64,000 nucleotides of DNA from NCBI GenBank assembly GCA_963797095.1, contig CAWCNY010000003.1:864001-928000 (forward strand). Direction: 5' to 3'. This DNA is from an uncultured Chloroflexia bacterium (GTDB lineage Bacteria; Chloroflexota; Chloroflexia; QHBQ01; JADMIH01). This document shows, one piece after another, positions 31,154 through 32,818 of this stretch (position 1 is its first letter; each line of letters starts with the position of its first letter). A model generated the notes under the pieces. The model searched no databases. It had not been told where the DNA came from and was given only the letters and a program-made list of their open reading frames with translations. Made by a program: the position numbers and the translations under genes.

Positions 31154-32818
31154 CTATTGGACCAACCGTCTCAGGCAGGCGAAGAAATAGGCCATCTTGT
31201 TCGACAGACCGGATGCGCCGTGCTTGCCCTGGGCCTCCCTGGTGCTCCTCTTGGCGTTGTACATCATCTCAACGAACTGGTGTTCATCCAACGAGGATGA
31301 GCGCCACAGGCGAAGCGCCTGACCCGCGTTCGCGATCACATGCTGCTGGTCGCCTAGCTCGTATGAGAAGTCGGTTATCACCTGGGCGATGTAGTTGGAA
31401 TGCTCGCTGTGAGATCCGTTGCCGTTCGCTCCTTTTGAGAGGGAGGGCTGACTCAAATCATCTTCCTCATCCTTTTCTGGATGCTTTGCTTCTACTTCGT
31501 GTTCACTGAGCGTCGTAGGGGCCTCTAAACGCTTTGTCATGGGGCGCTGTGACGCCTCAGTTGCAGGGCCAGCAAACTGCGTGTCGCCTGGGTCTGTATA
31601 CTGCGCGGCATTGGGAGGTATATACCCTGTGTCACGCACCCCTCTATACTTCATGTCATCCTCTGCTCTATACTCCGTGACATTGGGGCCACTATACGGG
31701 CTGTCACGGGGGGTCATATACTCTATGTCACCCCCTATCTTATGAGCTTTTCCATTACGCCCATTTGTTGCGTGTGTGGCGCGTAGTTCCTCTTTAGTGG
31801 AGACCAGATCCGCTTGTCTGTCGTGTCTTTGCCTGGCGGCAAGGCTTCCCCTGCGCGGCCTGCGCTCCACTCTTGAGGCTAACCTTGGATCGTCGTTTGT
31901 GGGGCCGGTTGGATCCTCCGCAGGGTCTTCGGTGCGGGTTGCCTGCGGTGCGGCGGGGGGTTGGAGCAGCTTGCCGATCTCTTCGAGGAGAGGACTGAAG
32001 TCGTAGGCGTTCGAGTCCTGGCCGCCGTCCGCCTTGGTGCGGTGGACCAGCCGAAGGTAATCGCGTTCCACCAGGCTTGCCTTGAGGCGGTGCAGGTAGG
32101 CGGGCGTGTAGCCTGTGAGGGCGGCCATGCGCATGATGCTGGGGTAGGGGAGGGCGGTGTCCCACTGGTAGGAGAAGATGTAGGCCACGAACCACACCTG
32201 CTGGGGGGTCATGCCGAGGCCCGCGCTACAGGTAAAGAGGGCGCGAGGCACCGCGGCCACGCCATAGCGCGTGATCACCCTGCCATAGCGCGCCACGAAG
32301 CTGGTGTCGCGCTCCGACCTCTCCAGCTCGTTCAGGGATGCCCAGGTGTCCTCGGTCTGGTCGGTGGCTCCCGCCTGTGATGCGTGCTCCCTGGTAACGG
32401 GCACGCCTATAGCGGGGTTGCTCATGCCTGCGCTTTGCAGGTCTTTGCGCTGCTCGATGATGCACGCTTCGAGATGGCCGAACAGGGGCGCGAAATCGTA
32501 TGCGTTGGATTCCTGCCCGCGCTCCTGCGATACGCGAGGGTAGACCAGGAGGTAGCCCATCTCGCGTAGCTCGTCGCTGTAGCGCTGCAACTGGCGCTTG
32601 CTCATGCCTGAGCAGCGGGCCATTACGCCGAGGCTTGGGTAGGGAAGGTCCTCGTCCCACTTGTGAGATAGGATGTAGGAGATGAACCATATGTGCTGAG
32701 CATACAGGTCGAGCTTGCTGCCAAAGTGATAGAGCGCCGAGGGGAGGGCCGCGATCCCGTGCTGTAGGATCACCCTCCCGAAGCGGGCAGCGAAGCTGGA
32801 TCTTCCTGAATTTGGCAT
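31154..32818 (-). CDS. Putative replication initiator with two tandem DnaD-N-like winged-helix domains
   Basis: Internal duplication of a ~110-aa domain ('G.AA.P.AL', 'LPYPS...MA', 'SNAYDF.PL'), resembling the DnaD N-domain; C-terminal 'NKMAYFFACL'; AGGAGG RBS; next to parAB. Confidence 0.72.
   Translation of the reverse strand: MPNSGRSSFAARFGRVILQHGIAALPSALYHFGSKLDLYAQHIWFISYILSHKWDEDLPYPSLGVMARCSGMSKRQLQRYSDELREMGYLLVYPRVSQERGQESNAYDFAPLFGHLEACIIEQRKDLQSAGMSNPAIGVPVTREHASQAGATDQTEDTWASLNELERSERDTSFVARYGRVITRYGVAAVPRALFTCSAGLGMTPQQVWFVAYIFSYQWDTALPYPSIMRMAALTGYTPAYLHRLKASLVERDYLRLVHRTKADGGQDSNAYDFSPLLEEIGKLLQPPAAPQATRTEDPAEDPTGPTNDDPRLASRVERRPRRGSLAARQRHDRQADLVSTKEELRATHATNGRNGKAHKIGGDIEYMTPRDSPYSGPNVTEYRAEDDMKYRGVRDTGYIPPNAAQYTDPGDTQFAGPATEASQRPMTKRLEAPTTLSEHEVEAKHPEKDEEDDLSQPSLSKGANGNGSHSEHSNYIAQVITDFSYELGDQQHVIANAGQALRLWRSSSLDEHQFVEMMYNAKRSTREAQGKHGASGLSNKMAYFFACLRRLVQ
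31597..31730. repeat. Six iteron-like motifs TATAC-N4-TGTCA with exact 24-bp period inside the rep-like gene
   Basis: TATAC at 31597, 31621, 31645, 31669, 31693, 31717; TGTCA/TGACA at 31630, 31654, 31678, 31702, 31726. Confidence 0.8.

Follow-up and report, generated by a model that had tools for sequence, protein, structure and literature searches.

A probable plasmid-type replication initiator of Chloroflexia with predicted tandem DnaD-N-type domains and an iteron-like array within its own gene

Among systems that have been worked out, the Rep protein of plasmid pSK41 is the closest precedent for the gene described here. Its N-terminal domain (NTD) binds four Rep boxes that lie centrally within rep, the linker encoded by this origin DNA is dispensable, and its C-terminal domain (CTD) binds DnaG, with both domains being DnaD-like (PMC5703833). 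The same account describes antisense-RNA control of rep for pSK41 and RepA_N plasmids (PMC5703833). The O gene of phage lambda contains ori-lambda (PMC5509034). The HTH_36 domain is listed in a figure comparing lambda O with DopC (PMC5509034), and proteins with HTH_36 have been counted among the Rep types of small plasmids (PMC6209633). Here we analyze 64,000 nucleotides of an uncultured Chloroflexia bacterium (hereafter the window; assembly GCA_963797095.1, contig CAWCNY010000003.1, positions 864,001 to 928,000), in which a minus-strand open reading frame (ORF) at 31154-32818, intact on translation, encodes a protein of 554 amino acids that we call Rep. Rep is probably a theta initiator of the plasmid type with its origin inside its own coding sequence, where iterons and an AT-rich patch would serve in initiation, a C-terminal domain in recruitment and linked par genes in partition.

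The Rep product consists of tandem DnaD_N/HTH_36 winged-helix domains, a disordered linker and a four-helix C-terminal domain (C-domain), and its gene has an AGGAGG ribosome-binding site 8 nt 5' of the ATG. The first winged-helix domain, N1 (32432-32800, minus strand), covers residues ~7-129 and the second, N2 (31964-32305, minus strand), residues ~172-285. Residues 7-116 and 172-281 align without gaps at 48 of 110 identical positions (44%, E 1e-34), and because of this identity the internal duplication is real and far beyond chance. A first-pass annotation of this DNA had placed internal homologues at ~7-115 and ~175-285, which is essentially right, and the repeat motifs it quoted show little or no variation in either repeat across a 46-sequence alignment. 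In this alignment W44, W54, P59, P61, D108 and F109 are invariant in N1, and their counterparts in N2 are W209, W219, P224, P226, D273 and F274; in the terminal 'NKMAYFF', N540, K541, M542, Y544 and F546 are nearly invariant.

An AlphaFold2 (AF2) model built with the same alignment has two confident domains, residues 9-129 and 174-285, in which the same elements follow in the same order: helix, strand, helix, winged helix-turn-helix (wHTH), two-stranded wing and long helix. The predicted local distance difference test (pLDDT) score is 71-97 in N1. About 170 residues of linker, 335-469 among them, score below 50, and residues 475-553 of the C-domain score above 90, in agreement with the low-complexity linker and short helical C-terminal domain described in the first-pass annotation.

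Both N-domains are predicted to fold as DnaD-N-type winged helices. Comparison of the model with known structures by VIA-align (VIA) gave Z 11.6 to Bacillus subtilis DnaD-N (2v79_B), with 116 of 117 residues aligned and the N-terminal helix-strand-helix extension included, Z 11.2 to DnaD-N 2vn2_A (110 of 110 residues) and Z 11.7 to 9a5c_B (123 residues). These matches span model residues 7-133, and the next unrelated structure follows at Z 8.7. Foldseek template-modelling (TM) scores, normalised to the target, are 0.70-0.76 for the DnaD-N matches. In the model, a helix-strand-helix extension precedes the winged helix and a further helix follows it, which bears out the earlier assignment to wHTH proteins of the DnaD-N type. 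RepE54 of plasmid F (7rva_C), itself a classical two-winged-helix initiator, aligns over both N-domains (model residues 15-280, 186 residues, Z 8.3), and the RepA_N NTD structures 4pql, 4pt7 and 5kbj align on N2 at Z 6.6-6.8. At the sequence level, two stretches of Rep match Pfam HTH_36 (PF13730) at 37 bits against a cut-off of 25. The DnaD_N (PF21984) cut-off of 27 is exceeded by all six homologues scanned (28.4-53.2 bits), each time on N2, and DnaD_N is precomputed on 106 of 120 listed homologues. DnaD-N 2vn2 is the top match of the family profile among PDB sequences, but only at E 0.059, and phmmer with Rep found nothing among PDB sequences. In PHROG, Rep matches 'replication initiation protein / O-like' families at E 3e-8 to 2e-5, including the O-like phrog_391 (E 6e-6) and phrog_345 (E 2e-5).

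The tandem architecture is a property of the family. Both N-domains are present in all 25 other distinct loci tested, and in 22 of these N1 best matches the first domain and N2 the second, which means that the duplication is old. ParA, mostly with ParB and in several gene orders, lies within ~8 kb of rep in 15 of 20 fetched loci; the expectation that homologues would keep both the internal repeats and the par neighbours thus holds in 25 of 25 loci for the former and 15 of 20 for the latter. The remaining five fetched loci, L053 of genome G032 among them, have no nearby par genes and keep the Rep architecture. Members were found in 26 of 41 related genomes, and copy number ranges from zero to many per genome; a sample of 200 further genomes from across the phylum gave no match at E<=1e-60. 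Where the source of a homologue is named, it is a metagenome-assembled genome (MAG) of Chloroflexia or Chloroflexota. All 56 records found in PLSDB are single-domain relatives and none covers at least 80% of the protein, so the tandem form is absent from this database; one single-domain HTH_36 relative is the sole annotated coding sequence of a 2311-bp plasmid. A tblastn search of 50,697 phage records returned no Rep match. The first-pass annotation did not recognise the tandem form as a named Rep family, and the lack of an NCBIfam match and of any PLSDB record with at least 80% coverage confirms this. In a limited literature search without supplements, neither a tandem DnaD_N Rep family nor a plasmid replicon for Chloroflexota was found described.

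The same genome carries a paralogous rep on the same contig (G000:C3:69724-71208, locus L034), encoding 543 amino acids at ~40% identity, with its own period-24 array (motif TAGAACA...TTTACA) and an AT-rich patch. It has no par genes within ~9 kb. Since it lies 4.5 kb from the genome's only match resembling a type IV secretion system (T4SS) coupling protein, this paralogue is probably in an integrated conjugative element.

Between the regions coding for N2 and the C-domain, the linker-coding DNA of rep holds an iteron-like array (31573-31764) of 24-nt units with the plus-strand consensus TATACnnnnTGTCAC. There are five full units at 31621-31731, three exact, one with one mismatch and one with two, together with TATAC-only or half units at 31597 and 31573. 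TATAC occurs six times at exactly 24 nt, or eight codons, from 31597 to 31717, within the 31550-31750 stretch that had been proposed for a binding assay with the purified protein. The array was first noticed by eye in 31450-31800 and then by a periodic k-mer scan, in which the TATAC run is the strongest periodic array of the 64-kb window; runs longer than three appeared in none of 2000 codon shuffles of rep and none of 40 shuffles of the window. At up to one mismatch, TATACnnnnTGTCAC has no other occurrence in the 64 kb, including the leader of rep. Tandem Repeats Finder did not report the array because its units are too divergent.

On the coding strand the unit reads GTGACA-n4-GTATA over eight codons. 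The codon that precedes Asp may specify Gly, Arg, Asn or Asp, yet it ends in T in six of seven units; every unit has G at the end of the codon preceding Tyr and A at the start of the codon following it. Codons straddled by the conserved T-GAC-A and G-TAT-A bases encode varying amino acids. In the Rep of the window, Tyr comes back at intervals of 8 residues, and the peptide units are otherwise unconserved except for Tyr/Phe and Asp. In the direction of the gene, the array is followed at a distance of about 80-120 nt by a patch of 62.5% AT (31455-31494; 40% for the gene) that ties for the AT-richest 40-nt window of rep and is a candidate unwinding element.

Arrays of the same period are found across the family. 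Homologue loci were fetched from related genomes and N2 and the C-domain were located in each; the 27 rows of the comparison represent 26 distinct loci with one duplicate, and the counts include L025 (from genome G032, flagged as unpublished), without which they shift by one. Among lags of 12-39, lag 24 gives the top autocorrelation in the linker DNA of 25 of 26 distinct loci, the exception being L051 with peaks at 23 and 25. The homologue arrays have 5-14 units with bipartite motifs that differ between homologues and are alike in close relatives alone. Where neighbouring units encode differing amino acids, third codon positions match 490 times in 25 arrays, compared with 303±15 expected when synonymous codons are permuted within each gene (500 permutations, maximum 341). 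This excess argues for constraint on the DNA itself, beyond a peptide repeat. In 20 of 25 homologue loci, no 40-nt window of the gene is richer in AT than one that follows the array at a distance of 11-139 nt. Iteron similarity also correlates with N-domain identity (Mantel r 0.58, reached by 0 of 2000 permutations), which we rejected as evidence of co-evolution because an array within the same gene shares its descent.

The C-domain (31160-31402, minus strand; residues ~473-553) is a candidate module for recruitment of host factors. Folded alone by AF2 it reaches a pLDDT of 91.7. A DnaD domain protein, the DnaD C-domain structure 2i5u_A, ties for its top match by VIA, which is independent of Foldseek, at Z 7.2 (root mean square deviation 2.2, 69 of 77 residues), although a Z of 7.2 is within the range common for helical bundles, and 2zc2_B aligns at Z 4.9. 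Foldseek with the C-domain found nothing at E<=0.001 and nothing below E 4.8, and its profile matched only designed helical proteins in the PDB. A likeness to the DnaB_2 motif finds no support in sequence: none of 15 C-domain sequences matches DnaB_2 (PF07261) at E<=5, and no relevant Pfam family is matched by any of them. In a language-model look-up (Atlas), the nearest named clusters are L_lactis_RepB_C and Bac_RepA_C at scores of 0.86-0.89, below the reliable level and to be taken as a lead only. In a related genome, the gene at locus L033 1492-2445 (minus strand) encodes a ~320-aa protein that begins with one Phage_rep_O domain, above cut-off, and ends in a Rep-type C-domain preceded by the same acidic 'DDSN' motif, and 10 of 120 listed homologues carry DnaA_N after the C-domain. 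Together these two associations give independent support for the C-domain as a replication module. No period-24 array was seen in the L033 Phage_rep_O gene. Frames of similar length that match the C-terminal part alone occur in six related genomes, of which two are flagged as unpublished. The members bearing DnaA_N, which is DnaA domain I (P0032, P0046 and eight others), are ~670-760 aa long, and their linkers contain 8-residue peptide repeats of a different sequence.

Downstream of rep, the minus-strand operon continues with parA, a P22_AR_N/ORF6C gene and parB. parA (29876-30976, minus strand) follows rep directly and encodes a P-loop ATPase (Pfam AAA_31 at 8e-47, CbiA, and an N-terminal MerR/HTH_17). 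The P22_AR_N gene (28884-29870, minus strand; Pfam P22_AR_N at 9.5e-22, weak ORF6C) separates it from parB (27676-28836, minus strand; ParB_N at 1.6e-20, HTH_ParB at 3.7e-12), and a homologue of it follows parB in one other locus, L039. A perfect heptamer array of ACTCGTC (7.7 copies, 28837-28897) occupies the space from the P22_AR-like gene to parB and could be a centromere-like site or a slippage tract. Another heptamer array, CACGTAT in about ten copies, lies at 21718-21794 in an intergenic gap of an ABC-transporter cluster. A VapBC pair is found downstream of the operon. Within ~15 kb, the neighbours of rep comprise transporters, an IS66 transposase, toxin-antitoxin genes and parA/parB, and no phage structural or lysis genes are present among the ten neighbours scanned with Pfam.

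Upstream, a leader of 667 nt (32819-33485) separates rep from a small Phd/YefM-like gene (33486-33719, minus strand). The small gene scores 24.1 bits for PhdYeFM_antitox, below the cut-off of 29.8, and has no toxin gene adjacent to it. Five of the 20 fetched loci (L035, L036, L037, L040 and L041) have a homologue of it at the corresponding position upstream of rep, and its product could regulate the replicon instead of acting as an antitoxin. The leader has near-consensus sigma-70 promoters on the strand opposite to rep, at 32839-32867 and 33114-33143 (plus strand), each with 11 of 12 matches and a TG extension. The first is followed by a strong terminator (32931-32961, plus strand), and the RNA fold of the first candidate has a z of -2.9. 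This arrangement suggests that the Phd-rep leader has two antisense countertranscripts, one of ~95 nt and one of ~110 nt. In two loci where Rep identity is only 57-58%, both leader blocks are conserved at 84-88% identity, and the paralogous rep of this genome has a related element upstream (144 nt at 72% identity). A sequence resembling small RNA 1 (sRNA-1) precedes rep in 7 distinct loci of 31 searched. Rfam gave only a sub-threshold 'sar' match to the leader, on the terminator hairpin.

The mechanism that we propose is as follows. The tandem DnaD-N-type domains would form a built-in pseudo-dimer that reads a non-palindromic, bipartite 24-bp iteron (GTGACA-n4-GTATA), with one half-site for each domain. 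There are 5-7 repeats of the iteron, in register with the codons for the disordered linker, and Rep loading onto them cooperatively would melt the neighbouring AT-rich patch. The C-domain, tethered by the linker, would then recruit the helicase, primase or loader of the host, the downstream parA/parB would partition the replicon, and the two small leader countertranscripts would probably set the level of Rep. Of this model, our data show the duplicated domains and their fold, the array with its DNA-level conservation, and the linkage to par; binding and melting of the DNA, the identity of the host partner and the control by RNA are steps that we infer. The only DnaB-family helicase match in this genome is at G000:C6:616627-616926 (locus L077), within an 881-aa frame about twice the usual length, which may contain an intein or a fusion.

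It is unlikely, in our estimate, that Rep is an initiator for which the in-gene repeats are copy-control or autoregulatory sites (for titration or handcuffing), or simply an 8-residue repeat of the linker, with the origin in non-coding DNA such as the 667-nt leader. Iteron plasmids do have extra iterons outside the minimal origin that serve in control, the leader is long and has highly conserved blocks, and the regular spacing of Tyr fits a peptide repeat. However, what is conserved in the units beyond Tyr/Phe and Asp is not the peptide but the codon-straddling DNA positions, the third-position excess arises where the amino acids differ, and the full iteron is found nowhere else in the window, leader included. 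In addition, an AT-rich patch lies beside the array in 20 of 25 loci, and the conserved leader blocks resemble promoter-plus-terminator units of the opposite strand. A role as initiator or replisome organiser for a prophage or an element of phage origin, rather than for a plasmid, would account for the O-like PHROG matches, for the P22 antirepressor-type gene in the operon and for the C-domain common to Rep and a Phage_rep_O protein. We consider it very unlikely in view of the empty search of phage records, the lack of a phage structural or lysis gene among the ten scanned neighbours, and the parAB linkage that recurs in 15 of 20 loci.

Two further roles seem to us highly improbable. If Rep were a DnaD-like primosome or helicase-loading adaptor of the host, acting on the chromosome without specific origin recognition, its best structural match to DnaD, the DnaA_N of some relatives and the contig shared with the chromosomal soj/spo0J would be natural, but not a family found in only 26 of 41 related genomes in zero to many copies and in 0 of 200 genomes phylum-wide at E<=1e-60, with a divergent repeat array of its own in every copy and, as a rule, a separate parAB. 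The first-pass annotation had left the choice between an initiator and a helicase-loader adaptor; the former fits better, because the family is patchy and multi-copy and has an iteron-like array in its own gene. Rep could also be a centromere-binding or partition accessory protein, with the array being a partition site used with ParA/ParB. Rep heads the parA-parB operon, and iterated repeats are typical of some plasmid centromeres. On the other side, the Rep architecture is kept in the 5 of 20 loci without nearby par genes, its domain families are associated with replication, and the separate heptamer array just upstream of parB could be the centromere.

Several observations weigh against Rep as a plasmid initiator with an in-gene origin, and the GC skew discussed below is ambiguous. 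At E<=1 the Rep of the window has no Pfam match to DnaD_N and none to RepA_N (PF06970), which is also not matched at E<=0.01 by six homologues. Neither Rep nor the six homologues match Rep_3 (PF01051) in Pfam, and Rep itself matches neither Phage_rep_O (PF04492) nor any NCBIfam family. The profile searches envisaged in the first-pass annotation therefore came out unevenly: HTH_36 was found, DnaD_N was absent from the Rep of the window and present in six of six homologues, and RepA_N and DnaB_2 were not found. DnaA boxes are not enriched, with 7 found and 7.95 expected. The AT-rich patch also encodes a conserved acidic peptide in which E443, E448, D454 and S455 are nearly invariant, so its composition may reflect constraint on the protein, and the third-position signal could partly reflect shared descent of the units instead of selection on the DNA. 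Finally, rep lies on a 1.15-Mb contig (C3) that also carries a canonical soj/spo0J pair, and the replicon may as a consequence be integrated and silent. This pair (G000:C3:191400-193250; locus L056 5396-7245) adjoins dnaJ and an IS66 copy, and spo0J and the parB of the window, both on C3, are the only two ParB_N genes of the genome.

Whether the replicon is active in this genome was considered from GC skew and from the IS66 copies. On contig C3, cumulative GC skew reaches its lowest value within the 5-kb bin containing rep. Three IS66-family copies, more than 99.5% identical and in direct orientation, are located at C3:193297-194763, 888098-889567 and 1100251-1101720, the middle one corresponding to 24098-25567 of the window. 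The rep-par module lies near the left end of the 210.6-kb segment between the last two copies. The skew of this segment has a minimum at ~890-895 kb, rises to a peak at ~1035 kb and then falls, as for a replicon starting at rep, and the IS66-bounded segment could be an integrated or mis-joined plasmid. GC skew is nevertheless weak evidence, because there is no inflection at rep in four homologue contigs of 68-119 kb and because dnaA, on contig C2, is away from the skew minimum; the skew of the genome is also noisy. The evidence for activity here is therefore mixed among a free plasmid joined in assembly, an integrated plasmid and an active second origin. A wider proposal is that these genes form a one-gene replicon family of Chloroflexia, in which domains and iterons co-evolve within one ORF at an 8-codon phase, and that the module still fires here as the origin of a ~210-kb IS66-bounded replicon, integrated into or mis-joined with the chromosome-bearing contig. 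Taken as a whole it is doubtful; if true, it would account for the exact coincidence of rep with the GC-skew minimum of this 1.15-Mb contig.

With its many natural specificity variants, the rep-plus-origin cassette of ~2.5 kb is a candidate for shuttle vectors and for sets of compatible vectors in Chloroflexota. The family also offers a natural system for the co-evolution of a DNA-binding protein with target sites written in the same codons, and for the recruitment of a DnaD-type fold, by tandem duplication, into a sequence-specific initiator. It further provides an annotation for many proteins of soil Chloroflexia MAGs that are described as 'hypothetical', 'AraC-like' or 'helix-turn-helix'.

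The first-pass annotation named only part of the known initiators to which Rep can be compared; lambda O, pSK41 Rep with RepA_N, and the two-winged-helix Rep_3 proteins share its overall plan. Like pSK41 Rep and the RepA_N proteins of Bacillota theta plasmids, Rep would combine a DnaD-like N-terminal origin binder with a repeat-bearing, poorly conserved linker and a compact helical C-domain (PMC5703833). As in RepA_N, the repeats are central in rep, in the part coding for the linker, which is seen here at the sequence level at 31573-31764 and in 25 of 26 loci. The candidate countertranscripts of the leader have their parallel in the antisense-RNA control described for pSK41 (PMC5703833). Instead of the four Rep boxes described for pSK41 (PMC5703833), there are 5-14 units here at a strict, codon-phased period of 24 bp. 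Rep further differs from RepA_N in having no RepA_N Pfam match, in its tandem duplication of the winged helix where RepA_N forms dimers of a single NTD, in its host phylum, Chloroflexota, and in a structural likeness to the RepA_N NTD (Z 6.6-6.8) that is weaker than that to DnaD.

Lambda O has an HTH_36-class N-terminal origin binder, its iteron origin lies within the O gene, and its C-terminal part brings in the helicase-loading machinery (PMC5509034), a plan that Rep would share. The O-like PHROG matches, and the Rep C-domain attached to a Phage_rep_O domain in a related genome, add to this likeness. In contrast to lambda O, Rep has no Phage_rep_O Pfam match, a duplicated N-domain and no match in phage genomes, and parA occupies the place immediately downstream where a P-like helicase-loader gene would be expected. 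A hybrid staphylococcal Rep of the pPR9 type joins an HTH_36-class NTD (pfam13730) to a pSK41-type CTD, which indicates that modules are swapped among initiators (PMC5703833), and the same modularity is apparent here from the C-domain on a Phage_rep_O protein. The pPR9 Rep has a single N-domain and a different host, and the two are compared here by domain plan.

Rep resembles the Rep_3 initiators (RepE of F, pi of R6K and RepA of pPS10) in having two winged-helix domains per chain and direct repeats beside an AT-rich region. It differs from them in the lack of a Pfam match, in DnaD-N-type domains with an additional N-terminal extension, in iterons located inside the gene, and in a long disordered linker followed by a separate C-domain. 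DnaD is a single-copy primosome protein of the host without sequence-specific iterons. The DnaD of Bacillus and Geobacillus (2v79, 2vn2) provides the best fold match over the whole N-domain, and the C-domain aligns with 2i5u_A at a Z common for helical bundles. Unlike DnaD, Rep has two N-domains and belongs to a patchy, multi-copy, par-linked family with its own array in each copy, its C-domain has no Pfam DnaB_2 match in 15 members, and its gene is not a conserved single-copy gene of the host, as its distribution in 26 of 41 related genomes and 0 of 200 phylum-wide shows. Because it does not match RepA_N, Rep_3 or Phage_rep_O in Pfam and its tandem form is absent from PLSDB, the Rep family is not one of the known ones. 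The plan of a winged-helix origin binder, iterons in its own gene and a recruitment domain is known, and what is new is the tandem DnaD_N family.

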